Notes: a model not told the origin generated them from the letters alone. A DNA stretch of 20,000 bases from an uncultured virus (IMG/VR IMGVR_UViG_3300025099_000015) (IMGVR_UViG_3300025099_000015); one strand, 5' to 3'; counted from the stretch's first letter, positions 1 to 20,000 are shown. Made by a program: numbers and translations.

Positions 1-164
1 ATCCATCAGGATACCCTGTACCGCCGCAAGGTTATGATACAATGGGTAATCCCTATTGGATAGACCCTGCTACCGGACAACCATCGTATACACCCCCAGG
101 TTCTGGTATAGGACTAGGAAAGATGATTCAAAAGGGTGCGGCATGGGCGGCTTGGTTAGCATGA
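1..164 (+). CDS. 3' end of a hypothetical Pro/Gly/Tyr-rich protein (5'-truncated by the window)
   Basis: Frame from nt 3 is open to TGA 162-164: PSGYPVPPQGYDTMGNPYWIDPATGQPSYTPPGSGIGLGKMIQKGAAWAAWLA*. Its stop overlaps the SD of the next gene. Not in the ORF track. Confidence 0.8.
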   Translation, partial: PSGYPVPPQGYDTMGNPYWIDPATGQPSYTPPGSGIGLGKMIQKGAAWAAWLA

Positions 165-169
165 GGGGT
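163..169 (+). promoter_or_regulatory. Shine-Dalgarno site GAGGGGT (representative of SD sites across the operon)
   Basis: The same 10-mer ATGAGGGGTT precedes ATG 174 (161-170) and ATG 3455 (3441-3450). Other SD-like sites: AGGTGA 3967-3972, AGGTGG 6298-6303, GTGAT 6866-6870, GGTGAT 10157-10162, GGAGGT 16933-16938, GAGGTG 17326-17331. Confidence 0.7.
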
Positions 170-173
170 TTAG

Positions 174-2126
174 ATGGACATCAACATACCCGTAACTATT
201 AGATATAGTAGACGAGACTACACAATAGGACAAAAGTTAGAACTCGATTCTAGCATGAGAGGTGGTGATGTAGATAATCACCCATTGTTTAAATTAATGC
301 TACAATACATTTGTTCTCCATTTAGTGATAATAACTATAATGATATAGAAGATGATTTAACTTATTTTTTAATGCCTAGTTTTATGAATAAGGTTGCTGA
401 AGAAGATAAAGATTTAGATTTTGATGAAAACGAATATAAACTACATGTTGATTATGCTTGGAAAGCAATACAGGAATTAACAACAGCAGAATTATTAGAA
501 AAATTAAAACCATACGTTGGTAATTATGAACAAATAGAAAGAGCATTATCTGGAGAATCTGGACTAACTGATGAAGGTAAAACTGTTAGAGTTTCAGATG
601 TTAATACTGAAATAGGCACAGACCATATAATGTCTTCACATACAAAAGGCATGGAAAGTAAAAAGATATGGCAAGCATCTGATAAACAACTTCCTTATGA
701 ACCTGCTTTAGAAAAAATAAATACTACGGATGATGGCAATCGTTATTTTACCATTGAAGTAAGTAATAAATCCCCTGTTAAATTACCACTACGTTATGGA
801 ACTCATAAGGCTACATTTCAAGAACAAGAATATGTTATTGAAATAGATTTTCAAAGAATAATGGAGAAATTGTTTGAGGAAGCAGGTATATCAGTTGAAG
901 TTTTAAGAGGTAGAAGAGGAGATATAGCCCCAACTGCGCCTAAAGATAAACAGGGTAGTAGGGATAATACCGAACAAGCATTAGCAGAAGCAATGGAACA
1001 AGCAAAGAAAATTAAAAAGTCTTTAGAATTAATTATTAAAGAAGAAAACATGCCAGAGGATGAAATTAAGGAAGATGATAAATATGATTATAGTAATATA
1101 AAAGTATACAATCCTCATCCTGATTATACATTATCTGAATTAGAAGAAGAAACACTAGAAAGAATAAATCTTAAAATCGCATGGAATACTTTACATGAAG
1201 AAAAACAATTTGATTATGAAGATGAAGTATCTAGTGGAGATTTGGATGCAGAAGAAATAGTTAGACAATTTAGGGAAGGTCAAATGGATGAAATTGCTCA
1301 ATTAGCAGGTGAAATGCTTGATGCAGGTGTTATGACACAAACAGCATATGACGCTCTTTTAGACGAGGGTAAAGTCCCTGGCAAAAAAGGATTTATTAAA
1401 AGGGAAAAGGCATTGATAAGTGATGTTGTAGAGTTTAAATCTAATATGAAAAAACCATTAGGTATGAATGAGTTTGAACAGGCACAATATACTAAAGAAA
1501 CAGTTAAAACTAGAAAAGATAGAAGTAATGTATTGCCAACAAAAAACCGTTCTATATTACATAACAAGGATTCAGATAAAACATTCTTTACTAATAACAG
1601 TTGGACTAATTTAGAGACTGCTGTAATTGATTTAAAAAATGGGGCATCTAATTCAAGAGAATTAAAAAACCATTTAGATAGGGCATTAATACCAAACAAA
1701 GTAGGCACTATGGTTATTGTATTATCAGTTGTTCACCCAACAGATGAAGAGAGAAAAGGAAGAGAGGATTTACTAAATGATGAGGATATAAGTATAAGTG
1801 GTAATGCTGAATATATATTAGAGAATATATATGATGTATTTAGTTTAGTAAGCGTATCATATGCTGTATCTACTGAATATAAAATAGGACGAATGCATAG
1901 TGAGAGAAAGCCAGAAAAAAGAAGTATGGCTACAGGAAGTGCTGAAAAATATAAACTATCAGGTGCTTATACTTTCAATCCTGATAAAGAGACATATGGC
2001 AGTAAAACTAATTTAATGGGTGGAACAGATGCCGGAGGACAACGGGTTTACATTGATAGTAGAACAAATACAATTCTATTCTACATTAAAAAACAATTAA
2101 ATGACTTACAGAAGGCGATACAATGA
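174..2126 (+). CDS. Hypothetical protein, 650 aa, strongly acidic (D/E-rich) with a more basic C-terminus; possibly virion-associated
   Basis: Long ORF with SD and an ATGA overlap with the next gene. No motif recognised. Function is inferred only from position in the structural operon. Confidence 0.85.
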   Translation: MDINIPVTIRYSRRDYTIGQKLELDSSMRGGDVDNHPLFKLMLQYICSPFSDNNYNDIEDDLTYFLMPSFMNKVAEEDKDLDFDENEYKLHVDYAWKAIQELTTAELLEKLKPYVGNYEQIERALSGESGLTDEGKTVRVSDVNTEIGTDHIMSSHTKGMESKKIWQASDKQLPYEPALEKINTTDDGNRYFTIEVSNKSPVKLPLRYGTHKATFQEQEYVIEIDFQRIMEKLFEEAGISVEVLRGRRGDIAPTAPKDKQGSRDNTEQALAEAMEQAKKIKKSLELIIKEENMPEDEIKEDDKYDYSNIKVYNPHPDYTLSELEEETLERINLKIAWNTLHEEKQFDYEDEVSSGDLDAEEIVRQFREGQMDEIAQLAGEMLDAGVMTQTAYDALLDEGKVPGKKGFIKREKALISDVVEFKSNMKKPLGMNEFEQAQYTKETVKTRKDRSNVLPTKNRSILHNKDSDKTFFTNNSWTNLETAVIDLKNGASNSRELKNHLDRALIPNKVGTMVIVLSVVHPTDEERKGREDLLNDEDISISGNAEYILENIYDVFSLVSVSYAVSTEYKIGRMHSERKPEKRSMATGSAEKYKLSGAYTFNPDKETYGSKTNLMGGTDAGGQRVYIDSRTNTILFYIKKQLNDLQKAIQ

Positions 2127-3226
2127 GTAGACTAAAAACAGAAAGCGACTATCTTCCAACTTTATCAGGCACTCAAAATATTGGAGATTATTTAGAAGGT
2201 ATAGGATACTATACTACTCATACTGATGTATCAGATTTATTACAATGTGGTGCATTTACAAGCACTTCTACTCCAGATATAACAGCAGTAGGTAAAATAA
2301 TTAAAAGGACTGAAGGTAGAATTGATGAAAAATTAAAGATGTCTTTTAGGCCGGAAATAATAGAAAAAGAAGTTCATAATTTTGACCCATATCAACAAGG
2401 TGCATACCCTGTTAGGACTAGTAAAGACTATGTTGGTTTCATTCAACTAAATAGTGAGAAGATTAGAAAGATATTAAGATTAGAAGTATGGCAAGGAGAT
2501 ACTTATGTTGATATGGCATCGGCTTCTTGCACTTATACTCCACCTACAACAGCACAAACAGGAACATTCAAACTAACATTTGGTGTTGGTGGGCTTACCT
2601 TTGAATTAACTGAGAATACTGCGAATGGTTTTTACGACCACTTTGGACAAAAAACAACTGTATTAGAAATATGTGCCGCAATTAATGAAGTATATCCTTC
2701 AAAAACAGCACCGTTTACTGGACAAAAGACTCAAAAACAAACAAGAAACACTACAGATACAAGAAACATATCTGATTTTTTCTATGCTTGTCCAACAGAA
2801 GATGGTAAATCTGTTTATATTTCTTCTAAGTTACCTTCAGATGCAGGGACTATATGCACTTTAAATCAGTTATTAGGAACAGATACAACAAGTTATTCAT
2901 TTACTGATAATCAAACAAGTGGTAGGACTGAAGAATATTGGGTTATTAATGAAGAAGGAAAGATATTCTTTAGAACAAATTATCCTTATCACACTAATCA
3001 TTCAATAAGAGTAACATATGAAAGAGGTAGAGGTAGAGTCCCTTCATCTATACATGAAGCAACGACTAAACTTGTAGCCGCAGAAATATTAGTTACTGAT
3101 GATAATACTATATTAATTGCTGAAACAGGCTCTAACATAGATATAACTAAAAAACATGAGATTCTAACAACAGAAGCCAACGCTATATTAGACGGCAAAA
3201 AGAACTTGATATACTTACTTGATTAA
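2123..3226 (+). CDS. Head-tail adaptor/connector (HK97 gp6 / SPP1 gp15-like) with an internal inserted domain
   Basis: N-terminal YYTTHTDVSDLL...IIKRTEGRIDEKL and C-terminal IRVTYERGRGRVPSSIHEATTKLVAAEIL match the adaptor pattern (Y-T-x-x-x-V-x-x-x-L ... V-T-Y-x-x-G ... V-P-x-x-I-x-x-A). Lies upstream of the terminator and tube genes. Confidence 0.7.
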   Translation: MSRLKTESDYLPTLSGTQNIGDYLEGIGYYTTHTDVSDLLQCGAFTSTSTPDITAVGKIIKRTEGRIDEKLKMSFRPEIIEKEVHNFDPYQQGAYPVRTSKDYVGFIQLNSEKIRKILRLEVWQGDTYVDMASASCTYTPPTTAQTGTFKLTFGVGGLTFELTENTANGFYDHFGQKTTVLEICAAINEVYPSKTAPFTGQKTQKQTRNTTDTRNISDFFYACPTEDGKSVYISSKLPSDAGTICTLNQLLGTDTTSYSFTDNQTSGRTEEYWVINEEGKIFFRTNYPYHTNHSIRVTYERGRGRVPSSIHEATTKLVAAEILVTDDNTILIAETGSNIDITKKHEILTTEANAILDGKKNLIYLLD

Positions 3227-3227
3227 T

Positions 3228-3452
3228 ATGAATAAACTTCACTATAATGAGTTGCTGTTAAAGGCGAATACCATAGCAGACAAATTAAAAAATAGAGAAA
3301 AAATAGAAAAGCAATTAGGCTTACCTGTATCAACTGAAATGACTGAACAATGGATTAAAGAAGAATTAGATGAAGCCGCTAAAAGGTATGCTGACAAGAT
3401 AGTATATGACATGCTACAAGAACAAATATATCAACAATTAATGAGGGGTTAA
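3228..3452 (+). CDS. Small helical hypothetical protein (74 aa from ATG 3228) in the neck region
   Basis: Fills the gap between adaptor and terminator genes. ATG 3228 follows the adaptor stop by 1 nt and is more plausible than the track's TTG at 3219. Confidence 0.7.
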   Translation: MNKLHYNELLLKANTIADKLKNREKIEKQLGLPVSTEMTEQWIKEELDEAAKRYADKIVYDMLQEQIYQQLMRG

Positions 3453-3454
3453 AC

Positions 3455-3961: not shown

Positions 3962-3977
3962 ATAAAAGGTGAAATAA

Positions 3978-6113
3978 ATGACAGTAAATGAAATATATAC
4001 AGGTGCAGGTGCATCGGCAACAATGATACCAGAAAGAGATTTTAATCTATCTGAAGCATTTGGTGATACTACCCATAACTTACTAGCAACAAAAACCAAT
4101 GATACAACAACTTTAGAATGGACAGTAGCCAACGACAAAAGATTAGTTACTAATATTTATCAAGGATGTATGGCTAAGATAGATAAATACAATTCTTCTA
4201 ATGTTAATCAAAATCATACTCAAACATTACTCATAGAATCTAATGATGCAAACTCAATAACATTTTCTCAAGCGTTATCAGCAACTAGCGGTGATAAATA
4301 TAAATGCACGATTCTAGCATTTGGTGCGCCTGTATATTCTCCTGATATGATTGATGGAAAACCTTCCTTGTTATCAGATAATTGGTTAGGCTTAGTAAAC
4401 ACATTTACCCCGCCTAGCATTGATGCGGAGATGAAGCAATCTAATCTAGCATTAGGTGGAACAAGAAACTTTGGTTATCAATTCAAAGGTGCTGAAACAG
4501 TAGGTGAAGCATCTATTGATTGCTCTCTAAATAATGGTTCTTGGTTATACTATGCTTTAGGAAATATGACATTATCTCATACATCCGGTAATTCAAACAC
4601 ATTAGCATCTGGTTTAACCGCAGGTAAAGCATATGCATTACCTTCTGGTGGTAGTGAAATATACAGAGTAGAAGATAGTAGAATATTACCTCCATTTAAC
4701 GGTGTTAGTGCAACAGCAGATAAATTAAACTCAATTACAATAACTAATGATGGTTCGCAAATACCTTTTTCTGTATCGCAACCATTAACAATAACAGGCA
4801 ATGCAACGGCTACATATGCACTAACTAAAGAAAAGCATACTATCACTTGCACAACCGAGACTGGAAGTAATTATGATAGTAAAAGTATAACCATTAAAAC
4901 TCCAAGTGCTACAGGTGCATCAGCATCAGCAGTAGTATATACATTCTGGTTTGATATTGATAATGCAGGTGCTTCACAACCTACTGTTAGTGGAACCACA
5001 ACATATGTTGAAGTTAATACAATAAGTAGTAGTGATGGTGCGGCACAAGTTGCTACTGCTTTATCTACTCTTATTAATTCGCAAAATGGTTTAACTGCTA
5101 CTGTTAGTGGTGCAGTTATTACTGTTGAATCAACATTTGGTGGTTATGTAGCAACCCCTGTTACTTTAACAGGTAGTTCTCACCCATTATCAAAAACACA
5201 ATTAGTTATAGGAGGAGAAATAGAATCAGTTACTATCACTAACAAAGGAAGTGGTTATAGTGGTGTGCCAACTATTAGTCCTATCACCACAGGTAATGTT
5301 AATGCTACATTTACAGCAGTATTAGGTGCTGATTCTAAAGCAGACTATGATGAAATTACATCGGATATTACATACACTATTACAGAAAATGATACAGGTG
5401 AATTACCTTCATTTGCATTAGAAGTAACACATGAAAAAGGTAATGTTCCTAATGCTGATTATTTCCAAGATGCAAATACACAAAATCTAATGTCTTACAT
5501 ATACACAGGTTGTCAAGTTAATACATTAACATTAAACTTTGAAGAAGGACAAGAAGTTACTACTTCAATTAGTGCAGTTTCCAGAAAGGCTCATCGTGCT
5601 GAAACTAACTATGTGCCTAAAAGACAAGTAAGGACTACAAGTGGCCTGTTTAATTTTAGCAGCACAGATTCTGATAATAACCCTTACATGTATTCTGATG
5701 GAACTATCAAAATGTATGGACAAACACTTGGTAGAATTAAAAGTGGTAGTGTTACAATTAATAATAGTATAACTCCACATCGTTACATTGGTAATTATGA
5801 TAGAACAATGGCTAGCGCGCATACTGCCGGACAAAGAACATATGAAATTAATCTAACTATGATGATGACTGATAGAACAATATGGGATGAATTAAGAAAC
5901 CAAAATGAAACTGATAATACAATAGGATTGATTGAAATAGAGTTTGCTAAATCTGCAACTGATAAAATTGTAATGAAGTTTAATGACTATCTTACTACAC
6001 AAGTAGATGTGCCTTTCCCAGATGATAAAGGGGCAATAGAAGTAAACCTAACAGCCCAGGCTAGAACATTACACTCTTGCACATATCAAGGAAAGTGGAC
6101 AATACTTAGTTAA
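3978..6113 (+). CDS. Major tail tube protein with N-terminal extension and inserted decoration domains (711 aa)
   Basis: Tube-like motifs (ELPSFALEV, YTGCQVNTLTLNFEEG, IKSGSVTINNSI, GQRTYEINLTM). Position immediately upstream of the frameshifting chaperone and tape measure gene. Confidence 0.8.
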   Translation: MTVNEIYTGAGASATMIPERDFNLSEAFGDTTHNLLATKTNDTTTLEWTVANDKRLVTNIYQGCMAKIDKYNSSNVNQNHTQTLLIESNDANSITFSQALSATSGDKYKCTILAFGAPVYSPDMIDGKPSLLSDNWLGLVNTFTPPSIDAEMKQSNLALGGTRNFGYQFKGAETVGEASIDCSLNNGSWLYYALGNMTLSHTSGNSNTLASGLTAGKAYALPSGGSEIYRVEDSRILPPFNGVSATADKLNSITITNDGSQIPFSVSQPLTITGNATATYALTKEKHTITCTTETGSNYDSKSITIKTPSATGASASAVVYTFWFDIDNAGASQPTVSGTTTYVEVNTISSSDGAAQVATALSTLINSQNGLTATVSGAVITVESTFGGYVATPVTLTGSSHPLSKTQLVIGGEIESVTITNKGSGYSGVPTISPITTGNVNATFTAVLGADSKADYDEITSDITYTITENDTGELPSFALEVTHEKGNVPNADYFQDANTQNLMSYIYTGCQVNTLTLNFEEGQEVTTSISAVSRKAHRAETNYVPKRQVRTTSGLFNFSSTDSDNNPYMYSDGTIKMYGQTLGRIKSGSVTINNSITPHRYIGNYDRTMASAHTAGQRTYEINLTMMMTDRTIWDELRNQNETDNTIGLIEIEFAKSATDKIVMKFNDYLTTQVDVPFPDDKGAIEVNLTAQARTLHSCTYQGKWTILS

Positions 6114-6146
6114 ATAACATAAAAACATAAATAATCCTTTTCTGAT

Positions 6147-6288: not shown

Positions 6289-6312
6289 TAAAGTTGAAGG
6301 TGGAAAAAGAAA

Positions 6313-6669
6313 ATGGAAAACATAGTAAGTGATAAGAACCGGCTATTTGCCGCAATAGAAACAGAATGTCATATTTTGAAAGTAGACGAAACTTCAGAAG
6401 ATGTATTGAAGGTGTGGGTTAAAGAACCTACATGGCTTCAAGTAGAACAAGCACTAGGGACAGTAATGAAACTAGATGCAGATACACAAAGTTTAGATTT
6501 AGATTTAAACAAGATGTATAAGTTTATGGTTGAAAACTTTATAGAAAAAACAGAACCACAGTTAAACACACTAGAATTAATGCGTTTATCTCCATTCATT
6601 GGGGCGCAATTAAAAGAAGTGTTACCAAACCCGTTTGATGACCTCATGGGGGCTGATACGGGAAACTAA
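6313..6669 (+). CDS. Tail assembly chaperone (lambda gpG-like), 118 aa
   Basis: Lies between the tube and tape measure genes, has SD AGGTGG, and ends in slippery heptamer G GGA AAC directly before its TAA. Confidence 0.85.
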   Translation: MENIVSDKNRLFAAIETECHILKVDETSEDVLKVWVKEPTWLQVEQALGTVMKLDADTQSLDLDLNKMYKFMVENFIEKTEPQLNTLELMRLSPFIGAQLKEVLPNPFDDLMGADTGN

Positions 6670-6869: not shown

Positions 6870-6873
6870 TATT

Positions 6874-8400
6874 ATGGCAGATGATACAAAAAAGTATGTA
6901 TCGCAATTAGCAAATGATATGCAAGTATTAGAGTCAAATGCTACATCTTTAACTAGGGCTTTTGGAGACTTAGGAGATGCTAGTAATAAATGGTGGACTA
7001 TTCTTGCTAGATTGAGTTCTGGTAGTGGTTTATGGAAGTTTCAAGCAAGGCTACGTTCAGTATCTAACTTGTTTGAATTATATTATAAAGCACAAGATAA
7101 AGCATTACAAAACACTTTGAACAGCCTTGATGCGGCTCAGAAATTAACGGGTGCTTTTGAAAGAGTAGAAAACAAATATAGTATGTTTTCTAAAAACATA
7201 GGAAAGATAACTAAAAAACAAAAAGCAGATGATGTTTTTAGTGTGTATATGGCTAGATTAAAAGATGAAGAAAAAGCATTCTATTTTACACAAAAAACTT
7301 ATGCTTCCGCACATAAAAAGTTTAGAAGGCAAATGAAGAAAGATAATAAAAAACTAAAAAAGCAGATGAGATTACCATATTCTGCTAAACAATTCGGAGG
7401 TATTTTTAATAGAAAGGGCAAAATTAATGCCGATGGTAGTGAACAAAAAGGAACTTTAAGAAAAGGAACTATACTAGGGGACGTTGCACCAATGAGAGCA
7501 GGTAGAAAAGCATTGTCAATGGGTAAATCAGCATATGGTTTTTTTACTAAAGGTGGTGCAGAAAAAAGCACCCTTAGCGAAAGATACGGGAAAGCAGATA
7601 AACGAGGTGTAGTATATGGTGCAAAGAAGTTTAAGGCTGAACAAGCAAGATTAAAGGAAGCAAATAAGTTTCGTAAAAGAATGGGTAGAGTTGCTAAAAG
7701 TTTTAAGGATAAATTAATGCCGGCTCTTACTGCTATGAGTAAAGCGATTCTTCAAGTAGTAGTAAAGGCTTTAATGGGATTCTTAATCTATTTACCTTTA
7801 ATTATTATCGTATTCATGGCTTTAAGAAAAGCATTTGGCCCTGTTAGAGAGTGGGCTAGAAAGAATGAACATTTATTTATACAAATAAAAGAACAAATTA
7901 TTGAATTATATTATGTTATGAAAGAATTGTTCCGAGCAATATTTGATGGTGATATTATAAAAGTATTAAAAATATGGTTTACACAAGTATTACCATTAGT
8001 AGCAAGAATACTGTTTAATGTCGCTAAGGTAATTTTAACAGCATTAGCCGTAATTATACATAGTGTATTCAAGACTTTTTACGATGTATTACAAAATCTT
8101 TGGGGTGCCGCTAAAAGTTATATTTCAAAGAAATTAAGTTTCCATGCAAGTGGTGGAACTGTTAATACTCCATTACAAATAGTTGGAGAAAGAGGGCCAG
8201 AATTAGTATCTTTGCCTAGAGGCTCACAAGTATATCCAAATGGAATGGCGGTTAGTGGTGGTGGCTCAACTACAATAAATGTTCATGTGAATGGTAGGGT
8301 GGGTGCATCCGATTCAGAGATAAAAGATATAGCAAATAAGGTTGCTAAAGAAATTAATCTAAGAATGAATAGAACAGGAACAACAGGAACGGGATTCTAA
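6874..8400 (+). CDS. Tail tape measure protein (508 aa)
   Basis: Follows the chaperone, is largely helical with hydrophobic segments, and carries the common TMP C-terminal motif FHASGGTV...IVGERGPELVSLPRGSQVYPN followed by TTINVHVNG. Confidence 0.85.
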   Translation: MADDTKKYVSQLANDMQVLESNATSLTRAFGDLGDASNKWWTILARLSSGSGLWKFQARLRSVSNLFELYYKAQDKALQNTLNSLDAAQKLTGAFERVENKYSMFSKNIGKITKKQKADDVFSVYMARLKDEEKAFYFTQKTYASAHKKFRRQMKKDNKKLKKQMRLPYSAKQFGGIFNRKGKINADGSEQKGTLRKGTILGDVAPMRAGRKALSMGKSAYGFFTKGGAEKSTLSERYGKADKRGVVYGAKKFKAEQARLKEANKFRKRMGRVAKSFKDKLMPALTAMSKAILQVVVKALMGFLIYLPLIIIVFMALRKAFGPVREWARKNEHLFIQIKEQIIELYYVMKELFRAIFDGDIIKVLKIWFTQVLPLVARILFNVAKVILTALAVIIHSVFKTFYDVLQNLWGAAKSYISKKLSFHASGGTVNTPLQIVGERGPELVSLPRGSQVYPNGMAVSGGGSTTINVHVNGRVGASDSEIKDIANKVAKEINLRMNRTGTTGTGF

Positions 8401-9145: not shown

Positions 9146-10168
9146 ATGCCAGGAGTATTTGTAGGAAATACAAAATCGTTAGTCTTCCCTGTAATGTGCG
9201 ATGCATATCTACAATTAAAATACGCTGATAAAAATGATAGTGCTTCAACTGCTTTAGGATTAAGACAAGGACTTTGGGGACATAATACATCATTTAGTAT
9301 AGAAGCAATAATTACTCCTTATGATGTAAACGGATTTGGTTCTTTGACAGGAGTAGGTGTTATAGATTCAGAAAAAACTCCACCTAGTATTGGAACAAAT
9401 ACTGCTAATCTAACACACTATCAAAGCCAAGCCTATTTTACACCTGCTAATAGAAATACACACAAGATGATGATATTCCATAGTGATGGCTTTGAATTGT
9501 ATTTACAAAATACTACTAGTCATAACTTTAATCAACCCGCAGAATACAAACTATGTGCTAAGATTGGTTCAGAAATTGTAGAAACAAATACTATAATATC
9601 TCCAAGAGATAGGCTTTATGGTTATTATGATTCATCTGGTTTCTATGATGGTATTTCTACTAGACTAAAACAATTCGATGATAGCACCACTAAACCTAAT
9701 AATAGCACAACTGTTACGTGTGAAAGCACTAGTCTGTTAGCAGTAGGTAAAGAAATATTCAATGCAAATGGCGTTAGTTTAGGGACTGTGCAAACTATTC
9801 CTTCATTAACTACTTTTACATTATCTAGCGGAGACAATTGGACTCCTAAGTTGTTTATACATCAACCTAAAGAAGCATTTTATATGGATACGATGTATAA
9901 AATAACTTGTTGTGTTCATACTGATGGAAAGATAAGATTATTTATAAATAATATTTTACTTGTTGAAGATAAAATTACTATTACTGACTTTAATTTTGGC
10001 ACTACTGATTGTTATATCGGTAGAGACCCTAATACAACCAATACTCAATTCATGGGAGAACTATACGAAATAGCGATGTATAAAACAGCAGAACCTAGTG
10101 TTGCATCAACTACTCTAAATATAGGATATAATGATACTATATTTTATTATAGGTTTGGTGATTTATAA
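9146..10168 (+). CDS. LamG / concanavalin A-like lectin-fold tail-tip protein, 340 aa
   Basis: LamG-type motifs SFSIEAIITP, YKITCCVHTDGKIRLFINN and YIGRD...QFMGELYEIAMY, separated by insertions. Confidence 0.7.
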   Translation: MPGVFVGNTKSLVFPVMCDAYLQLKYADKNDSASTALGLRQGLWGHNTSFSIEAIITPYDVNGFGSLTGVGVIDSEKTPPSIGTNTANLTHYQSQAYFTPANRNTHKMMIFHSDGFELYLQNTTSHNFNQPAEYKLCAKIGSEIVETNTIISPRDRLYGYYDSSGFYDGISTRLKQFDDSTTKPNNSTTVTCESTSLLAVGKEIFNANGVSLGTVQTIPSLTTFTLSSGDNWTPKLFIHQPKEAFYMDTMYKITCCVHTDGKIRLFINNILLVEDKITITDFNFGTTDCYIGRDPNTTNTQFMGELYEIAMYKTAEPSVASTTLNIGYNDTIFYYRFGDL

Positions 10169-13100: not shown

Positions 13101-16100
13101 TAAAAATGTTCAAACAGTTTCTAGTATGTATTTTAGTGTTATTAGTATTGATACATCCTCAGATACTAACACTACAATTAGATTAGCACCGAACTTCCCT
13201 GTGGTATTAGGTAGTATTGATACTAATGAATCGGATGATGTTTACGGCACAGAATTGCGTTATTTATATATGGTTAATTCTAATATACCTAATGGGGGTT
13301 TCATACATGGACTAAAGGATGCACCTACGACTTACTATACTCCCAAAAGCACGTTTAGATATTGGGGACTTCAAAGGTTTTCAGAAGGAACAATTAAAGA
13401 GACACATGATTCGATTTATGATAATAGTAAAAAGACTCAACGTATAACTGCGGCTACTCCTATGTTTCAAATAAAGGCATCTGGTGAAAAAATAACTAGT
13501 TTAACAGATTTAACACCAAGCCTAATGCCTCATTCTGGCTCTAATATCTGGACAGGTGCTGATATGGGATTAGTTAATAGAAAAGCCCCTGTTGAATATT
13601 GGGATATTCTTAGTGGTGTTAATACTGTTAATTGGAAACAACTAGAAAATATAGATTACAGGGCTAAAAACTATGAATTACTTTCAATAGGAGACGTATA
13701 TCCAGACTCTAAATTAAGATGGAACAGCCTACAATACGCTACTCAAGAAATGAATGAATATGGTTTACTCTTAAAAACCAAAGGACAGGAAGGAAGCGTA
13801 GTTGCTCATGAAAAGTATACAGGAAGTAATACACAAACAGAACTTTCGGATGCAAACTATGAAAGAGTAGAAATAACTACCTCAAATAAAACAACAAATC
13901 AACTAAAAAGATTTGGAGTAATGAGGTTAGTTGAAGCAACCTTTGATTGGCATATGAATCCAATTGATTATGAAAGTGTTGCCGGAAATAATGATTATGA
14001 TAAGATTACTAATTTTAAATATCCTAGAATGAAGGTATTGTATAATGCTTTAGTTAATACATATTCTGCTGGTAATTCAGTGTCTTTTGATACTATAACA
14101 GATGCTTCTGGTAGTAGTGAGGCCAATATGACTTTACAAGGGTCTGATATTATTTATAGAGCAGACGGAACTATACTAGGAGAAGTTCATACAGGAGTTA
14201 CAAATGTAACTTCTTTGAGCATTTCTGGTACTCAGATTGTATTATATGGGGCTGCGCCTGTACCTGATGAAAAAGTATACATTATTAGACAGAAACTATT
14301 CAGCACTCTAGCAGATACTAATTTTGGAATTGACACCATAGGCACAAATCCCTTTAGAATGTTAAATAATTATATTGCTTTACCTAATATTCATAAAGAC
14401 TATTTTCAGTTTAAATTACTAAAGGGTGATTCAGATAATAAGTTTGACGCACAAAATGTTTGGATTCCTTTAATATCTAGTCTTATAAATGATGGTAGTG
14501 GTTTTGATGAAACAGATTATTGGTCTTTATTTCACGAAGCAAAGGAATGGGATTCTTCGACTAACCCTATATGGTATCACCCATCTAAAGTAGTTTATGG
14601 TTTAGCAAAACCTACCACAACAACAGAAGGAAATGCTAACGTGAGAGATGATGGTAAACAATATAAAATAGGAAACAAAGCAGACCTATATGGTAAAAGC
14701 ATACTTATGTTTAAAAATATGAAAAAGTCATTTTCTGGGCAAACTGAAGATAGTTTTAATTTACCCACTTCTGCACCTTTAGACCCAGGCACTCATGGAA
14801 CTATGACAAAATATGATGCTTATGAAAACGAAACTCATTTTACAGGTTCAACAGGGTTAAACCAACTTTCTCCAAATATAACTATTAATACAAAAGAAGA
14901 CGATTTTGCTATATGTGGCACTAAAACACAAAGACATATTTATTCTGCACCTAATGGAACGAATAGAACATGGGGAAGTAGGCAGGAAACACATACAAAT
15001 GGTTCTGCAAATGAAGGAGGGTTATTCCAAGCACAGACCTTTATCAAACCTAGATTGATTCTTACATCTACTAATGCTACATCTTTTAGTTTAACAATGA
15101 ATGATTCTAGCGATAACCTATGGTTAGACTTTGTTCCTAACTTGGAAGGATATTATTTAGTATCAGAAAAGATGGGTAATAAATATATTCCTAGTTTAGA
15201 AAATGCCGCAAGTCATGCAATTAAAGGAAGCCCAGATTATATCGGTAAAATAATAACACACGTAACAGGGACAAGTGGTGATGATACAAGCCATACTATA
15301 ACCCTAGATAAGACATTGACTACAAGTAGTGTTGGAACGACATTTAGACTAATGAGAATATCAGAGACTACATTTGAAGATACTCCAGATTACTTTGAAG
15401 TAAACAAGATGTTTGATACAGGATTAAAGTATACAAGTCTACATCAAAACTTTGTTACTACAATAGAAGATGAAAGTGGGGCAGATGCATCGGTTTCACA
15501 AACAGAAGGAGACACCGCAGATGATTTCCCAGAATACTTAGCATATCAACAAGGGCTATACTCGATGTATTTGTTATTGAATATAGATACATTCAATACT
15601 TATATTGATAGAAGAACACTCGCTGATGCTAAGGCCTTGTTTGCTGATGGAGATTCATTGAACTGTTACATTACTGATGGTAGAAACAAACAAGAAAAGA
15701 ACATTATTGTTTCAGAAACCACAGACAGTCTACGGTTTTCTTATGATGGAAAATTAACAGGATATGGTGTAGTGTCTTTTGGTGAAACATTTACAATAGA
15801 GACAAGACACACTCCTTCTAATTCAAACGCCACAGAAGCATTTATTGGCACTACAATATCAATAGGAACAGATGTTGAACAGGCAATGTTAGAGATACTA
15901 GAAGAGAATGAAATCTCCACTACTACTTCATTAAAGAATATGGCATTTACAGGTAATATAGTAAACGCAAATACTTCTGGCACAACTATTACATTTACTG
16001 AAAACCATTCAGGTATTAGTGTAGATGATGTTCTCTACAATCAAGACGGTAGATTAATTGGTAAGGTTACTACTGCTAGTGCAGGGACTACTGTTGTTGT

Positions 16101-16887
16101 TTCTAATATATACTATAAACCAATAAAGAATGATGAAATTACAAAATACGATAGAACACCATTTATACTTAACACCGAGTTTAATGAGCAAGATATATTC
16201 TCATCAATAAACTATCTAGCATCTAAAAGAGGATTAGATTATGTTTTTGATAATAACAATATAACAATTAAAGATTTAAATAATTATGATTCAAGAAGAA
16301 AGTTTTCATTAAAATATAATGATGGTTCTAATTTAATATCAGTAGAAAGCAACACTAGTCTTTTTGATAAGGCAAATAAAATATTAGTGATTGGGGATAA
16401 CGTAAAAGCAGAAGTAGAAACTCCTAGTAATATTAAAAGGACTATAAAACATATAGATAGTAATATTAAAAACTCCGAAGAGGCAAGAATTAAAGCCCAC
16501 AATTTATTAGAAATACATCAGGCGGGATTTAGAAAAATAGAATTGACTTTAGAAAAGACAGGATTTGAGTTAATGAAAGCGGGAGATATTCTAACCTTAG
16601 ACTTCCCAAATCACAACATCCCTGCTGATGATTATATCGTTTTTGAGATAGAAAATGTGATGTCTACCATTTCCAAAATCACGGTTGGCACGTTTAATAA
16701 AACGATAGCAGAAAGGCTGTCTGAAATTAGTTTAAATCAAGATAAGGGCTTCACAGGGCTTTTGACTAGAAACATAAATAAAACACTTACGGGTAAGATG
16801 CTGATAGATAACATAGCACCGAAGGAGAAATCTTTACACTATGCTCTAACATCTACAACAGGAGGGACTATAATTGGCTTTAATTAG
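10168..16887 (+). CDS. Giant tail-tip / baseplate hub (Tal-like) protein, 2239 aa
   Basis: Hub-type motifs VFNGTVEDI...YTVNGRD (aa ~750-775) and C-terminal ANKILVIG...IDSNIKNSEEARIKAHNLL...AGDILTL...YIVFEIEN...ITVG. TAATG coupling to the upstream gene; T/S/N-rich beta composition. Confidence 0.7.
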   Translation: MERYVYVLNAGKYGNTNINYTYANKGNAFTGDVAFKNTSVNPVLKCTNINAEHSGLSANFFEIRNTHYEGEISNASHSAIVNRIYPSTNKPNIVSDATYGKNKQQTTSFKIRTYTSTSATNSDDHANQLLVGNSSLNMDLDTYDYFVLINPQIAHSTSDSTPSIRPHFAKITNIISFDEHGDGFEFEPKYPEAIAKDTNFEIYKGPLVSDTSVVAVSYGLRGDGTELGTSTNDDYDNSSPVTFITDKYDAGSEVSRPTWYFYNDRLQNEDRLDYGTKYNLTTCRCFDWDTKGTFTLTNTKSQYLNNAVLVSTNFTGIIGQSVYQKLNNGNYIYMGNVISYSSPSLTLEYAVNTITSTLSSTANSDTNIHVGRTIHQSVFRTEREYGTDIEDYGSMNQHAVLVDRMYNKDGEIGITNQPTDYETGSTTTYSFNPCKWKDAFRNARRNINDRSSAHTSYATANSVNARHADLSGPNRYTYYKTSHKKNNAINPVMSVAVNNPKNKLSQFASTTVMDNNGIQFLKIKEDEKYSVTKSLHTSTTSDVKLPFTATTTYSSIGTTFQINLKNIHETSALDWKPTIDYKTNQVIKTDTILKIKEVYYRVGTIAAVGSKTQSIQVTHKKQAKDKQWIPLTSSHANEFIDSGQDVFIMCWNGGLNTLCPIDTEAVYESNTLQRLTINEKTVSKNDTSLYKKTLSLLNKEFYGFNIEIDYGDKNHNHIKLLTNKTFYQPSTNKKDFMYYYQGGYCIEDEVFNGTVEDINSKNENGMLTYTVNGRDNTSVLLNNTTNKNLHKSDDIIYSTLPPVFIPTTTIANKSSVSGSAITLVSGDDTIINKSLLFNDANELIGEISSHSGSPTILIIAGKTDANVSTTLKVITPLEANYIAGTKALAANTKLTTHPTDFSSLGNNGLIFNDGNKINVVEGTVALSYSKLLNTSATGSYNQDNSIGYDITDIKSISEGLDSNFALKLSKENRASIDYKNVQTVSSMYFSVISIDTSSDTNTTIRLAPNFPVVLGSIDTNESDDVYGTELRYLYMVNSNIPNGGFIHGLKDAPTTYYTPKSTFRYWGLQRFSEGTIKETHDSIYDNSKKTQRITAATPMFQIKASGEKITSLTDLTPSLMPHSGSNIWTGADMGLVNRKAPVEYWDILSGVNTVNWKQLENIDYRAKNYELLSIGDVYPDSKLRWNSLQYATQEMNEYGLLLKTKGQEGSVVAHEKYTGSNTQTELSDANYERVEITTSNKTTNQLKRFGVMRLVEATFDWHMNPIDYESVAGNNDYDKITNFKYPRMKVLYNALVNTYSAGNSVSFDTITDASGSSEANMTLQGSDIIYRADGTILGEVHTGVTNVTSLSISGTQIVLYGAAPVPDEKVYIIRQKLFSTLADTNFGIDTIGTNPFRMLNNYIALPNIHKDYFQFKLLKGDSDNKFDAQNVWIPLISSLINDGSGFDETDYWSLFHEAKEWDSSTNPIWYHPSKVVYGLAKPTTTTEGNANVRDDGKQYKIGNKADLYGKSILMFKNMKKSFSGQTEDSFNLPTSAPLDPGTHGTMTKYDAYENETHFTGSTGLNQLSPNITINTKEDDFAICGTKTQRHIYSAPNGTNRTWGSRQETHTNGSANEGGLFQAQTFIKPRLILTSTNATSFSLTMNDSSDNLWLDFVPNLEGYYLVSEKMGNKYIPSLENAASHAIKGSPDYIGKIITHVTGTSGDDTSHTITLDKTLTTSSVGTTFRLMRISETTFEDTPDYFEVNKMFDTGLKYTSLHQNFVTTIEDESGADASVSQTEGDTADDFPEYLAYQQGLYSMYLLLNIDTFNTYIDRRTLADAKALFADGDSLNCYITDGRNKQEKNIIVSETTDSLRFSYDGKLTGYGVVSFGETFTIETRHTPSNSNATEAFIGTTISIGTDVEQAMLEILEENEISTTTSLKNMAFTGNIVNANTSGTTITFTENHSGISVDDVLYNQDGRLIGKVTTASAGTTVVVSNIYYKPIKNDEITKYDRTPFILNTEFNEQDIFSSINYLASKRGLDYVFDNNNITIKDLNNYDSRRKFSLKYNDGSNLISVESNTSLFDKANKILVIGDNVKAEVETPSNIKRTIKHIDSNIKNSEEARIKAHNLLEIHQAGFRKIELTLEKTGFELMKAGDILTLDFPNHNIPADDYIVFEIENVMSTISKITVGTFNKTIAERLSEISLNQDKGFTGLLTRNINKTLTGKMLIDNIAPKEKSLHYALTSTTGGTIIGFN

Positions 16888-16948
16888 TATAGGAACAGTA
16901 TTACAATTACCTTCAGAAGTAACCGTAATAACGGAGGTTAATTTATGA
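16874..16948 (+). CDS. Candidate micro-ORF (24 aa) MALISIGTVLQLPSEVTVITEVNL
   Basis: TTG 16874 preceded by AGGAGGG (16860-16866) with a 7-nt spacer. Its TGA (16946-16948) overlaps the next ATG as ATGA, and it spans the otherwise empty 57-nt gap. Confidence 0.5.
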   Translation: MALISIGTVLQLPSEVTVITEVNL

Positions 16949-17337
16949 TTGTAACAGAAGGTAAGAAACAAGTGGCTAAACTTATAACAGGCCTACAAGA
17001 TAACATTACTTATGCTACCACTAGTGGTACTAGAACAGATAGTAATTTTAGATATATAAGAGTAGGTAATGGAGGAGACAGCACATCACCTTCTCAAACG
17101 ACATTAGACAACCAAGTAGGTGATGCAAAAACATCTACTCCAGATTTAGTAGGCAACACATTAGTTTATACTGTAACTTTCACAGGGGCAGATATATCAT
17201 CAAATACCATTTCAGAAATAGGAATATTTGATGCGGCAGAAGGCGGTAATATGCTTTCTCGTATTGTGTTTGATGATGTGGGGCCATTAACTGCTTCTGA
17301 AACAATTACATTTACTCTTAGACTTGAGGTGGAATAA
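16945..17337 (+). CDS. Tail-collar / fibre-attachment (baseplate upper-type) protein, 130 aa
   Basis: Pattern MIVTEGK...YIRVGNG...SQTTLDNQV...ISEIGIFDAAEGGNMLSRIVF resembles the tail-collar fibre N-terminal domain (ITxxG ... xGxG ... ixEiGlf ... G.l). SD GGAGGT. Confidence 0.65.
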   Translation: MIVTEGKKQVAKLITGLQDNITYATTSGTRTDSNFRYIRVGNGGDSTSPSQTTLDNQVGDAKTSTPDLVGNTLVYTVTFTGADISSNTISEIGIFDAAEGGNMLSRIVFDDVGPLTASETITFTLRLEVE

Positions 17338-20000
17338 TGGGAACACAGACAAATACAGATGGAATAAGCACATTAGGAACAGCAGATGACCCAACTGGTT
17401 TAGTAGATGGAACCGATAGTATTCATACAGGTATTCTAAATGCATTAAATCAACAAAGTGCAGGTTCTTTTGTAGCGCATGGATTAAATGTAATTCAAAA
17501 CGGAAGCACATTTACTGTAACTTCTGGAGGTTGGTTTGATGAAGGAGAATATAAAACAACTTCTGTAGGTGCTGTAAGTGATACTTTAGATTCAAGTGGT
17601 GCAAAAGACCATTATGCTTTCTTGGTAATAGCAAAAGGTGCTACTACTCTATCATTAAGAACAGCAACAGGTTCTGTAAGTGGTGCAAATACCACTAGCA
17701 ATATATTAGTGGCTTCTTTGACAGCAGGGGATATACCTGTTTGTTTAGTTAAAGTTTTAGCAGGGGCAAGTCCAGGTGCTAGACCAATACAATTCTATGG
17801 AATAAAGAAATTAGATTCTAAGTTTACAGCAGTAAATAATGGCACAGAAACAATGAGGATAAATAAAGAAGGCACTATTTCTTTACCAGGTAATACAGGC
17901 ATTATTTCTTTACCAAGTATAGGAAGCACTAATGCTACTTTACTAAGCACTCACAATAAAGGTATTTCTGATGGAAGCATATTAGAAGCAAATGCAAATG
18001 TAGCAGACAATGACTTTCTAAGAGTTGATGGAACTAAAATAGAAGGTAGAACAGTTGCTCAAATGAAAACAGATTTGAGTATTGGGCTTACTGATGTTAG
18101 TGGTGATTTAGATGATATACCAGATGGTAGTAATCATAAAAGAATACCAACCGCAGACGCTACTAAAATAAGTAATCTAACTGTTAGTGGTGCTATTGAT
18201 TTAGATGCTATGAAAGTTAAATCAGACCGATTAACTGTTACAGGTGCTATTGATGTAGACGCTATGAATACTAAAGTTGCGGGTATTGCAGCAGGTGCTA
18301 CTGTTGGTGCTACAAGTTCTCAAGTATCAGACATTGCAGCAAATACTGCTAAAGTAGGAATAACTACTACTCAAGCAACTGCTATTTCTGATAATACAAA
18401 TAAAGTAGGTATAACATCTACTCAAGCAACTGCTATTAGTAACAATACTAGTAAGGTAGGTATTACCTCAACACAGGCTACGGCTATTAGTAATAATACA
18501 GCAAAGGTTGGTATTACTTCTACTCAAGCAACTGCTATTAGTGATAATACAGCAAAGGTTGGTATTACTACTTCCCAAGCAAATGCTATAACTGCAAATA
18601 GTGCAAAGGTTGGAATTACTACTACACAGGCTTCTGACCTTGCTACGGCTAAAAGTAGAACAGATACATTAACAGATACATATATTGAAAGTAAGGCCGC
18701 CGCTAAAATAGATGCATTACTTGGTGCAGATTCTAATGCTGTTGATACATTAGCACAACTAGAAGACTATCTATTAGACAGCACAGTATCAGGTGGATTA
18801 ATTCAATCATTAGGTAATAAAGTAAGCACTAGCACAACAGTTAATGGACATGCTTTAACAGGAAATGTTACTATAACAAAAGCAAATGTAGGATTAGGTA
18901 ATGTAACAGATGGGGCAACAGTTGGTGCAACTACTGCTCAAGTAGATGCAATAGCACTAAACACAGCAAAGACAGGTATAACATCAACACAGGCAACTGC
19001 CATAAGTGATAACTCGGCTAAAACAGGGATAACATCAACACAGGCTGATGCTATAACTGCTAACACATCTAAAATTAGTTATACTGATGCATCAGCAGTT
19101 GCTGCAAATACTGCTAAAGTAGGTATAACATCTACACAAGCCACAGCAATTAGTAATAATACAGCAAAGACAGGAATAACAAGCACTCAGGCAGGGCATA
19201 TTACTGCTAATAATGCTAAAATAAGTTATACAGATGCTTCGGCAGTAAGTGCTAACACAGCAAAAACAGGAATTACTACATCACAAGCAGATGCTATTAC
19301 AGCGAATACTGCTAAGACAGGAATAACTAGTAGTCAAGCAAGTGCTATTACTGCTAATACTGCTAAGACAGGAATAACATCTACACAAGCAGATGCTATT
19401 GCTGCTAATACTTCTAAAACGGGCATAACATCTACCCAAGCGAATGCAATTACAGCAAACACGGCTAAGGTTAGTTTTGCATATGATAGTGCTACAGATT
19501 TAGGCACAGGTGGAGACATTGATAATGATATTATCTCTATATATGATACAGGGGCAAGTGCTTATAAAAAAGTTAAAATGAAAGATTTCTTAACTAAGAT
19601 AACTGCTAATCAATTAGTAAGCAGTGGTAGTGGAACAGGAACAGTATTCTCTACACTACCTGCTAGTGGTGCAACTGTTGGTTCTATTCTAGGAACAAAC
19701 ATGTTTGACACTGACGGTTCAACTGCATTAACAGCAGCCATAGTAAAGAATGCTAATACAAACTGGTCTGATGTTGCGGGAACCACAAATGCACCTGCAA
19801 ACAATGCTACTGTTGGGGCTGTGCTAGGAAGTAATATTTTCAAATCAAATGGTTCTACTCTAATAACAGCAAATGAATTACTAAACACTAATACAACTGC
19901 TTCTGATGTAGGTTTAGGGAATGTAACTAATGAAAGTAAAACTACTATGTTTGACGACCCCACGTTTACAGGGGATATTACTATACCTAATGGTGGTAGC
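17337..20000 (+). CDS. Tail fibre protein, at least 888 aa, 3'-truncated by the window (absent from the ORF track)
   Basis: ATG 17337 overlaps the upstream TAA, SD GAGGTG. Frame is open to nt 20000 (MGTQTNTDGISTLGTADDPTGLVDGTDSIHTGILNAL...FTGDITIPNGGS). Fibre motifs VNGHALTGNVTITKANVGLGNV and ASDVGLGNVTN, A/T/G/S-rich, with tandem repeats. Confidence 0.88.
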   Translation, partial: MGTQTNTDGISTLGTADDPTGLVDGTDSIHTGILNALNQQSAGSFVAHGLNVIQNGSTFTVTSGGWFDEGEYKTTSVGAVSDTLDSSGAKDHYAFLVIAKGATTLSLRTATGSVSGANTTSNILVASLTAGDIPVCLVKVLAGASPGARPIQFYGIKKLDSKFTAVNNGTETMRINKEGTISLPGNTGIISLPSIGSTNATLLSTHNKGISDGSILEANANVADNDFLRVDGTKIEGRTVAQMKTDLSIGLTDVSGDLDDIPDGSNHKRIPTADATKISNLTVSGAIDLDAMKVKSDRLTVTGAIDVDAMNTKVAGIAAGATVGATSSQVSDIAANTAKVGITTTQATAISDNTNKVGITSTQATAISNNTSKVGITSTQATAISNNTAKVGITSTQATAISDNTAKVGITTSQANAITANSAKVGITTTQASDLATAKSRTDTLTDTYIESKAAAKIDALLGADSNAVDTLAQLEDYLLDSTVSGGLIQSLGNKVSTSTTVNGHALTGNVTITKANVGLGNVTDGATVGATTAQVDAIALNTAKTGITSTQATAISDNSAKTGITSTQADAITANTSKISYTDASAVAANTAKVGITSTQATAISNNTAKTGITSTQAGHITANNAKISYTDASAVSANTAKTGITTSQADAITANTAKTGITSSQASAITANTAKTGITSTQADAIAANTSKTGITSTQANAITANTAKVSFAYDSATDLGTGGDIDNDIISIYDTGASAYKKVKMKDFLTKITANQLVSSGSGTGTVFSTLPASGATVGSILGTNMFDTDGSTALTAAIVKNANTNWSDVAGTTNAPANNATVGAVLGSNIFKSNGSTLITANELLNTNTTASDVGLGNVTNESKTTMFDDPTFTGDITIPNGGS
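18342..18647 (+). repeat. Coding tandem repeat block 1: 6 x 51 bp (17 aa, consensus NTAKVGITSTQATAISD/N)
   Basis: Units start at 18342, 18393, 18444, 18495, 18546 and 18597. Confidence 0.95.
18960..19457 (+). repeat. Coding tandem repeat block 2: 8 x 51 bp (NTAKTGITSTQAxAITA) plus 2 x 45 bp (NxxKISYTDASAVxA)
   Basis: Unit lengths in aa 17,17,15,17,17,15,17,17,17,17, starting at 18960, 19011, 19062, 19107, 19158, 19209, 19254, 19305, 19356 and 19407. Confidence 0.95.
19659..19928 (+). repeat. Diverged 45-aa (135 bp) duplication in the tail fibre
   Basis: PASGATVGSILGTNMFDTDGSTALTAAIVKNANTNWSDVAGTTNA (from 19659) versus PANNATVGAVLGSNIFKSNGSTLITANELLNTNTTASDVGLGNVT (from 19794). Confidence 0.8.

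Follow-up and report, generated by a model that had tools for sequence, protein, structure and literature searches.

GATC and AGCT are purged from a putative magrovirus tail module and from almost all of its relatives, a probable imprint of host nucleases

A 20,000-base stretch of DNA from an uncultured virus (IMG/VR record IMGVR_UViG_3300025099_000015), which by its gene content and that of its kin appears to be the tail module of a magrovirus (order Magrovirales, group-B-like), contains not a single copy of the palindromes GATC and AGCT, and the same two words are missing from almost all of its relatives. The pattern reflects strong, continuing, DNA-level selection against particular short words. 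Probably, host nucleases keyed to these words keep magrovirus DNA free of them, so that the purged words form a layered fingerprint of the host. The stretch analysed, referred to as the window (33.4% G+C), corresponds to bases 15-20014, read on the reverse strand, of one 22,323-base virus record, for which CheckV gives a completeness of 23%. Window and stored record differ at three single bases (10851 A/G, 13881 C/A and 17579 T/C), and GATC and AGCT are at zero in both.

GATC occurs 0 times in the window against 49 expected from a maximal-order Markov model and 60 from base composition, and AGCT 0 times against 61 and 60; over the whole contig both counts remain zero, for Markov expectations of 55 and 65. 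Codon shuffles of the contig (1,000 runs) preserved protein sequences and pooled codon usage, permuting synonymous codons per amino acid in 14 coding regions and leaving intergenic DNA and overlapping codons unchanged. They yielded 35.3 ± 4.4 GATC (lowest shuffle 21) and 84.1 ± 7.1 AGCT (lowest shuffle 60). The exact counts thus bear out an earlier sequence-only reading of the window, in which both words had been judged by eye to be purged throughout. That reading had listed GTAC among the words that occur, which is true of four sites but overlooks a third, nearly purged word: the shuffles give 75.8 ± 6.6 copies (lowest shuffle 55). By exact count, the residual GTAC sites lie at 18..21, at 14228 and 14260 (14228..14263) and at 17027..17030; the middle two fall in the gene of a 2239-residue tail protein and could be removed synonymously (GGT ACT; GTA CCT). 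Depletion is not shared equally by all palindromes. In comparison with the codon shuffles, only three out of the 16 palindromes of four letters are purged; AATT and TCGA are moderately low (TCGA 8 versus 26.2 on the contig), and the others stay within about three standard deviations, among them CCGG (13 versus 13.2), CATG (45 versus 44.9), CTAG (79 versus 70.4), GGCC (16 versus 10.8), TTAA (211 versus 220) and ATAT (249 versus 255). One-letter neighbours of the purged words are enriched (AGCA 306 versus 194 by the Markov model; TGCT 143 versus 88 by codon shuffle). An apparent depletion of CTTA/TAAG (160 versus 262, Markov) was dropped as a coding effect, these words falling outside the 20 most depleted in the codon shuffle.

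The avoidance can be read in the choice of codons across the 11 reading frames of the window. Asp is encoded by GAC in 15 of 15 cases before a codon starting with C, as against GAT 341 times and GAC 48 times elsewhere (48/389, 12%). One such bent codon pair is GACCAT at 621..626 on the + strand, and the same arrangement is found at 2636, 8771, 14782, 17388, 18225, 18636 and 19956; all eight of these positions, which had been put forward earlier as examples of Asp switching to GAC, do read GACC. Ala is never GCT after a codon ending in A (0/125) and is GCT in 163 of 324 cases elsewhere; neither Ser AGC before T (0/95) nor Ile ATC after G (0/41) is used. For the third palindrome, GTA precedes C once in 20 instances and TAC never follows G (0/21). 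The 28 Gln-Ala pairs are distributed over CAA-GCA (15), CAA-GCC (2), CAA-GCG (2), CAG-GCA (4), CAG-GCG (1) and CAG-GCT (4), and the further observation that CAA-GCT is never used for Gln-Ala in the fibre repeats holds as well (0/28).

Additional words are depleted in this lineage, as judged by a second null, a chain of synonymous swaps in which GATC, AGCT and new GTAC are forbidden (250 samples, 125 for degenerate words). RAATTY (0 versus 43.8 ± 4.7), GGAGC+GCTCC (0 versus 16.7), GTYRAC (0 versus 10.4), TGRYCA (0 versus 8.5) and GGWCC (0 versus 7.2) are absent, and ACTGG+CCAGT (5 versus 36.7), CTRYAG (5 versus 31.5), GCWGC (8 versus 24.1) and CASTG (3 versus 19.1) are reduced. The non-palindromic words are low in both orientations on the coding strand (ACTGG 5 versus 27.4, CCAGT 0 versus 9.3, GGAGC 0 versus 11.4, GCTCC 0 versus 5.3), and all long reading frames of the window lie on the + strand, which places the constraint on double-stranded DNA and not on mRNA. 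Unlike in most of the more distant kin, CCWGG is retained in the window's group (7 versus 11-15 expected). A-rich runs across codon borders are also rarer than in codon shuffles (AAAT/ATTT 442 versus 534, AAAA/TTTT 492 versus 578, AAAAT 125 versus 168), a deficit that the absence of RAATTY accounts for only in part.

The same zeros recur throughout the relatives of the window. A first kin set of 90 records (1,337,616 bases) comprises loci retrieved by means of the tail tube protein, a 650-residue protein and a profile of the capsid; whole records took the place of four of these loci, and one was dropped as lying on the same contig as another (L007 and L001), the set being otherwise not de-duplicated and including three contigs from bacterial bins. 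A second set of 80 records (801,896 bases) represents a more distant sister capsid clade, with 46% identity to L006, the closest kin of the window in IMG/VR (93% identity over the 650-residue protein). Most of these records are fragments. For kin, expectations are Markov estimates; word counts of kin and control viruses are given as observed/expected. In the first set GATC stands at 0/4,081 and AGCT at 167/3,638, all of the latter in one clade (L014-L016); in the second, GATC stands at 10/1,710, in two records, and AGCT at 56/2,132, in seven. Over both sets (170 records, 2.1 Mb, not de-duplicated) the counts come to 10/5,791 and 223/5,770, with GATC absent from 168 and AGCT from 160 of the 170 records, which span many IMG/VR sample prefixes and, in the first 90, a G+C content of 31% to 49.5%. 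Three near-complete genomes show GATC at 0/316, 0/462 and 0/269 and AGCT at 0/215, 0/271 and 0/168.

The AGCT-tolerant clade is informative about the persistence of the selection. In its representative G011 (L108-L110), AGCT is found at 121/179, evenly spread over 49 kb (6-16 per 5 kb), together with GATC at 0/105 and ACGT at 0/26.5, and no methyltransferase was found in these 49 kb (51% complete). The pattern resembles what a move to hosts with another set of words would leave. AGCT sites return quickly where they are tolerated, so their absence elsewhere requires continuing selection. Separately, one 21-kb IMG/VR record (L157), one of the two kin records with any GATC, has GATC at 9/34, AGCT at 0/54 and GTAC at 76/82.

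In contrast to the near-universal loss of GATC and AGCT, the purges of GTAC, RAATTY, CCWGG and GCWGC are confined to scattered sub-lineages. Among the 90 records of the first set, 13 count as purged of GTAC (no more than 15% of expectation), 42 carry it (50% of expectation or more) and 22 are intermediate, power being too low in 13; RAATTY is purged in 10 and present in 64, GCWGC purged in 10 and present in 67, and CCWGG purged in 28 and present in 10. A quick single-gene maximum-likelihood tree of the capsid was built; of the 67 loci that reach 7 kb, it includes the 64 whose capsid match covers 400 residues or more and is free of stops. It has Shimodaira–Hasegawa-like approximate likelihood-ratio support alone and a midpoint root and describes a group known for module exchange. 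On it, GTAC-purged records form six separate groups, each adjoining GTAC-bearing kin. The window's group (G000, L001, L006, L008, L012, L013 and L019) has jointly lost GTAC, RAATTY, CTRYAG, GCWGC, ACTGG, GGAGC and GTYRAC, and also TGRYCA except in L019; two relatives with 86-87% capsid identity (L017 and L026) retain most of the words purged in this group. Where the tail tube genes of L002 and L003 carry GTAC (seven and six sites), the amino acids of the window are the same at three and one sites and different at four and five, respectively, numbers too small, given an identity of about 70%, to show how the purge proceeded. Individual genomes show zeros of their own: TGACA 0/62, CAGAG 0/79, GAGAC 0/45 and ACTGG 0/33 in G022 (L103-L107); CCAGG 0/87, CGACG 0/40, GAGACC 0/35, GAGCAC 0/32 and CTCCAG 0/27 in G039 (L098-L102); and lows of CTACAG (1/47) and GGAACC (0/31) in G029 (L093-L097). 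Such genome-specific, non-palindromic zeros hint at recognition sequences of systems of the Type IIS, IIG or III-like kind.

Control viruses lack the double purge. Pelagiphage HTVC008M (L111, bases 1-50000; 34% G+C) has GATC at 24/130, AGCT at 51/100 and GTAC at 276/270; a Methanofastidiosa virus (35 kb, 41% G+C) has 273/264, 118/127 and 119/115, respectively; and halovirus HVTV-1 (41 kb, 57% G+C) has GATC at 0/173, AGCT at 90/101, GTAC at 193/208 and CTAG at 6/42. Loss of both GATC and AGCT is therefore not general to low-G+C marine viruses or to all archaeal tailed viruses. HTVC008M has a fingerprint of its own (TCGA 0/34, CGCG 1/24, ACGT 39/114).

The assignment of the window to magroviruses comes from its gene content and from that of its kin. 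From its start, the window encodes on the + strand a 650-residue protein of the structural module with no family match (174..2126), which served as the anchor of the close-kin search; a 367-residue protein matching phrog_17057, of unknown function (2123..3226); a 711-residue tail tube protein (3978..6113; Pfam Phage_tube_2, 2.4e-17; phrog_290), which found no match in the phage collection; a tail assembly chaperone (6313..6669; phrog_25860, 6.3e-08); a probable tape measure protein (6874..8400), with a weak match to phrog_19914 (2.9e-05) in its C-terminal part only; the 2239-residue tail protein, with no Pfam or PHROGs match (10168..16887), whose counterpart in the near-complete relative G029 has 2201 residues; a 130-residue fibre-associated protein (16945..17337; phrog_5417, 1.5e-11; Pfam Gp80 at 4.9e-05, below the cut-off); and a fibre protein whose repeats are rich in Thr and Ala and whose frame is still open where the window stops, which holds the Gln-Ala pairs described above (17337..20000). 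A small P-loop GTPase-like gene lies in the structural module upstream, at window coordinates of about -2018 to -1350 (L006:7797-8465; MMR_HSR1 weak, E 0.0011, below the cut-off).

Upstream, L006 has three consecutive genes, for an 843-residue ATP-dependent DNA ligase, a prohead protease and a capsid protein of the HK97 type. The capsid gene lies beyond the end of the window's own contig, and the capsid evidence accordingly comes from L006, whose capsid protein has matches in the phage collection solely among archaeal tailed viruses (9/9: eight haloviruses of the HVTV-1/HCTV type and one Methanofastidiosa virus). This agrees with the capsid of group-B-like magroviruses, which is of the HK97 type and stands nearest to that of haloviruses in the Druskaviridae. 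The collinear, near-complete G029 (95,571 bases; capsid 63% identical to that of L006) carries the same ligase-protease-capsid block, the tail tube, the 2201-residue giant protein and a second ligase in its replication block, along with a DNA polymerase B divided between two genes, nucleases of the ERCC4 and PD-(D/E)XK kinds, a pyrimidine-dimer glycosylase, a ribonucleotide reductase and a TFIIB-type zinc ribbon. The window's contig and its closest kin stop short of the replication module. Among relatives, the polymerase is split in G029 (frames of 572 and 304 residues) and G039 (562 and 292) and unsplit in G024, the record behind L046 (a 948-residue frame). In G022, the record behind L040, the polymerase B match runs through 12 stop codons, and the split or spacer varies among kin. 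Among kin the tail modules are collinear, comprising a tube, a chaperone, a tape measure protein and a giant protein some 2200 residues long, and a sheath gene is absent. Kin rated 99-100% complete measure 92,994, 95,571 and 98,438 bases, with 31-44% G+C. Magroviruses of groups A/B and B are marked, respectively, by a ligase embedded among the structural genes and by a split polymerase (Philosof et al. 2017, PMC5434244), and the set of polymerase, ligase, ERCC4 and glycosylase has been described for magroviruses (Xu et al. 2023, PMC10160649). The profile of the family Aoguangviridae (order Magrovirales) by the ICTV gives genomes of about 90-100 kb, low G+C and a missing sheath gene (PMC10768690). 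We therefore file the window as a magrovirus tail module on the strength of the ligase-protease-capsid block, the polymerase/ERCC4/glycosylase set, genome size, G+C content and the lack of a sheath.

These viruses do not appear to protect their DNA by methylating it. Searches of the kin for the three principal DNA methyltransferase families returned PF01555 in 0/40, PF02086 in 0/41 and PF00145 in 0/41 records, three of which are rated 99-100% complete, and no methyltransferase was found among the 11 proteins of the window or the 86 reading frames of G029, which answers the earlier suggestion that the virus be checked for an enzyme of its own. As a positive control, the same search of the same records recovered DNA polymerase B in 5 of 41, including all three complete genomes. 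It is these three genomes and the 86 frames of G029 that carry the case for absence, the fragments being weak evidence. The HsdS specificity subunit (PF01420) was found in 0/41 records; an HsdS gene is shown in the genome map of a reference magrovirus (PMC10768690).

Host assignment and host methylation were taken from published work. The literature assigns magroviruses to Poseidoniales archaea (PMC5434244, PMC10160649, PMC10768690; Nishimura et al. 2017, PMC5332604), and two independent papers tie them to Marine Group II by chaperonin phylogeny and by sample enrichment. Together with magrovirus membership, this agrees with the earlier naming of Poseidoniales among the candidate hosts. In marine metagenomic methylomes (Hiraoka et al. 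2022, PMC8919816), archaeal bins carry N6-methyladenine (m6A) at 19-99% of GATC sites, with exceptions of 7% and 0.4% in two euryarchaeal bins, and AGCT modification reaches 82-91% in each of the two thaumarchaeal bins, as against 2-19% within Poseidoniia. Motifs are reported for six of seven Poseidoniia bins, with GATC m6A in five of the six and N4-methylcytosine (m4C) in AGCT in one and in GTAC in one, so that single-molecule methylomes of the candidate hosts, to which the sequence-only reading had pointed, do contain all three purged palindromes. By bin, the methylated words are GATC (26%), GTAC m4C (72%) and CGCG in CM1_5m.P3; AGCT m4C (15%) and GTWAC in CM1_5m.P48; GATC (15%) and CGCG in CM1_5m.P71; GATC (22%), GTNAC and CGCG in CM1_5m.P78; GATC (42%) and GAAAC in Ct9H_90m.P16; and GATC (42%) and GTWAC in CM1_200m.P21. 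A methyltransferase of CM1_5m.P3 is 54.5% identical to a GTAC enzyme (PMC8919816). The bins themselves retain about 0.9-3.2 sites per kb, as calculated from the motif counts of that study on the assumption that both strands were counted. In a survey of 519 complete archaeal genomes, GATC (27/29) and AGCT methyltransferases occur throughout Nitrososphaerota, with AGCT enzymes in 14/14 Nitrosopumilales; the same GATC and AGCT pair is persistent in Methanomicrobiales, with GTAC added in sub-clades, and persistent GTAC methyltransferases belong to soil Nitrososphaerales and not to Nitrosopumilales (PMC10609329). The survey, which does not cover Poseidoniales, describes the archaeal GATC, AGCT and GTAC enzymes as persistent orphans and suggests a common epigenetic function.

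Taken together, these data lead us to favour host nucleases as the agents of the purge. A purged word would be a liability inside the host cell, where a nuclease keyed to it would cut viral DNA. A virus that has no methyltransferase and brings its own replisome could not rely on self marking, and zero sites would then be its only safe state, reached mostly via synonymous codon choice and codon neighbours. An old, nearly order-wide layer would comprise GATC and AGCT, which are also the two words that the persistent methyltransferases of archaea modify. A young layer, specific to lineages, in which the loss of GTAC (its four residual sites aside) and RAATTY is complete and that of CTRYAG, GCWGC, ACTGG, GGAGC and other words is partial, would track the variable restriction repertoire of particular host strains. 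The purged words match those methylated in the presumed host class, including the strain-variable GTAC, which makes restriction in the broad sense the simplest cause. We consider nuclease-based restriction of one form or another likely. Its classical form, the cutting of unmethylated sites, we put at slightly below an even chance; it is favoured on two grounds: with a replisome of its own, the virus may stay ahead of host methylation, and the partial methylation of the bins may come from mixed strains, some possessing the system and others not.

Several points weigh against this explanation. No nuclease for the purged words is known in the host class, and zero restriction-enzyme genes are listed for all seven Poseidoniia bins (13-68% complete) in PMC8919816. 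Of the earlier proposal, selection as opposed to composition and the behaviour of the purge as a host fingerprint stand, the two words being missing from almost all kin, and the GATC- and AGCT-directed host nucleases that it supposed do not so far. The same study reads most marine methyltransferases as orphans inactive in defence, with the caveat of its authors that nucleases may be overlooked, such genes being hard to recognise. GATC is methylated at only 15-42% of sites in Poseidoniia bins, which is awkward for a classical cutter unless strains are mixed, and viral offspring from a host with universal methylation would be shielded, so that selection of the classical kind is weakened. The host assignment is itself indirect, combining gene-content marks seen in kin with the literature. 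Chaperonin (PF00118) was found in 0/41 kin records. A capsid-profile scan of 185,579 species genomes returned three contigs, in two bacterial bins only. Bacterial hosts were rejected on the grounds that these contigs (L009 and L010 in a Maricaulis bin, L011 in an Altibacter bin) have 35-36% G+C, against 55% in a chromosomal piece of the Maricaulis bin (L092); by composition they are probably mis-binned viral contigs in public metagenome-assembled genomes. A host link was also sought through the replication-block ligase and abandoned, as its Atlas look-alikes fall in viral or bacterial clusters that are uninformative on host.

The alternative that survives best is avoidance of methylation itself. 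Here the host methyltransferases would be true orphans, and methylated sites would be cut by Type IV or DpnI-like nucleases elsewhere or would hamper replication, transcription or packaging. All Poseidoniia bins have methyltransferases with no annotated nuclease (PMC8919816), and the same specificities are persistent orphans in other archaea (PMC10609329). Hosts are heterogeneous, two euryarchaeal bins having 7% and 0.4% GATC methylation and others at least 42%, and both states would await a virus that passes from one to the other; ridding its DNA of a word altogether makes the virus indifferent to methylation state, an advantage that works under the classical and the methylation readings alike. 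Against this, no Type IV enzymes are reported for these hosts: in the supplement of PMC8919816, 'Mrr' does not appear, a single DpnI-like entry belongs to bin CM1_5m.P35, and RAATTY, a word of the young layer, has no reported methylation in Poseidoniia (0 occurrences). Sequence data alone do not separate methylation avoidance from classical restriction; weighing the two sides, we judge methylation avoidance unlikely, though it deserves to be taken seriously.

A purge that is real but imposed by a different host, the ammonia-oxidising Nitrosopumilales, is improbable. Nitrosopumilales have a similar G+C content (about 33%). The methyltransferase survey and the thaumarchaeal bins cited above also speak for them, GATC enzymes being present in 27/29 Nitrososphaerota and AGCT enzymes in 14/14 Nitrosopumilales (PMC10609329), and AGCT modification reaching 82-91% compared with 2-19% in Poseidoniia (PMC8919816). 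The genes of the virus and its kin point the other way: the ligase inside the structural module of L006 is a magrovirus mark, as are the two ligases, split polymerase B, ERCC4, DNA glycosylase and TFIIB-like gene of collinear near-complete kin, and the literature ties these marks to Marine Group II. The GTAC purge fits Nitrosopumilales poorly too, as GTAC methyltransferases persist in soil Nitrososphaerales and not in this order (PMC10609329).

Still less probable is self-immunity, in which a magrovirus nuclease would cut GATC and AGCT, possibly methylated, in host DNA and the viral genome would be safe for want of the words. The near uniformity of the old layer across the order despite varied hosts would fit, as would the presence of several viral nucleases (PD-(D/E)XK and ERCC4 in G029; others described in the magrovirus structural module, PMC5434244) and the lack of a viral methyltransferase. 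Yet restriction-enzyme families gave no match at E ≤ 1e-4 among the 86 frames of G029; AGCT has been regained throughout the genome in one clade and GATC stands at 9/34 in one record, both of which are easier to square with a switch of host than with a core viral enzyme having been lost; and host methylation of exactly these words is the simpler cause, with the variable young layer left unexplained by a viral weapon. Finally, an absence produced by composition, codon usage, mutation bias, or an assembly or library artefact can be dismissed for practical purposes: low G+C does lower expected counts and the CTTA/TAAG depletion does vanish once coding is considered, but 0 of 1,000 codon-preserving shuffles came near the observed counts, the neighbour words AGCA and TGCT are enriched, the same zeros run through 170 records and the controls lack the pattern.

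A near-total purge of GATC and AGCT in genomes of about 95 kb with no methyltransferase is a pointer to missing host nucleases or methylation-reading systems. Marine methylome work reads Poseidoniia methyltransferases as orphans with no role in defence (PMC8919816). More tentatively, and with rather less than even confidence, we propose that the 'orphan' GATC, AGCT and GTAC methyltransferases of several archaeal phyla may be the visible half of a widespread, unrecognised nuclease barrier, of which the purge would be the first evolutionary read-out, and that the young purges (GTAC, RAATTY, CCWGG, GCWGC, ACGT and the non-palindromic words) may form a barcode pairing magrovirus lineages with Poseidoniales strains. 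Were this so, the barcode, matched to long-read methylomes, could pair uncultured magroviruses with particular Poseidoniales strains. The comparison of layered purged-word sets with host methylomes also offers a tool for proposing virus-host pairs in organisms that cannot be grown.

In the literature searched, which left subscription papers (for example, Zhou et al. 2023 and Kim et al. 2019) outside its scope, no statement of the purge in magroviruses was found. In the parts of the texts covered, PMC5434244 contains neither 'methyl' nor 'tetranucleotide', PMC10160649 neither 'methyltransferase' nor 'restriction', a 2025 Poseidoniales virus paper none of 'GATC', 'restriction' and 'methyltransferase', and PMC5332604 neither 'GATC' nor 'AGCT'; in full-text literature, 'magrovirus' and 'GATC' occur together only in a paper on haloviruses (PMC8651126). 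The strategy, restriction-site avoidance, is known, and magroviruses are a new case of it. Avoidance of restriction sites by phages is textbook knowledge and has been reviewed (PMC4687349, PMC10359461). Short Type II-like palindromes are removed by synonymous choice, and staphylococcal phage K, for instance, is described as lacking GATC. The present case resembles the classical phage examples in synonymous removal and in leaving other palindromes untouched, and differs in that those have a known host cutting enzyme; for magroviruses no such enzyme is known, and the host methyltransferases of the same specificity count as orphans. In archaeal tailed viruses, GATC and a Dam-type methyltransferase are either present together or both missing (Liu et al. 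2021, PMC8651126). The haloarchaeal tailed viruses, the nearest cultured relatives by capsid, are alike in that GATC is purged with no viral methyltransferase (HVTV-1, 0/173); HVTV-1 differs in keeping AGCT (90/101) and GTAC (193/208) and in lacking CTAG (6/42), and magroviruses differ from haloviruses in the order-wide purge of both GATC and AGCT, in a methyltransferase route seen in 0/41 records and in their presumed hosts, uncultured marine Poseidoniales. The remaining comparison is with the methylation of Nitrososphaerota and Methanomicrobiales. Although that survey concerns the host genomes of other archaeal phyla and includes neither Poseidoniales nor viruses (PMC10609329), the evidence for Poseidoniia coming instead from metagenomic methylomes (PMC8919816), its pair of GATC (m6A) and AGCT (m4C), with GTAC (m4C) added in sub-clades, presents the same words in the same layering as the purge in magroviruses.

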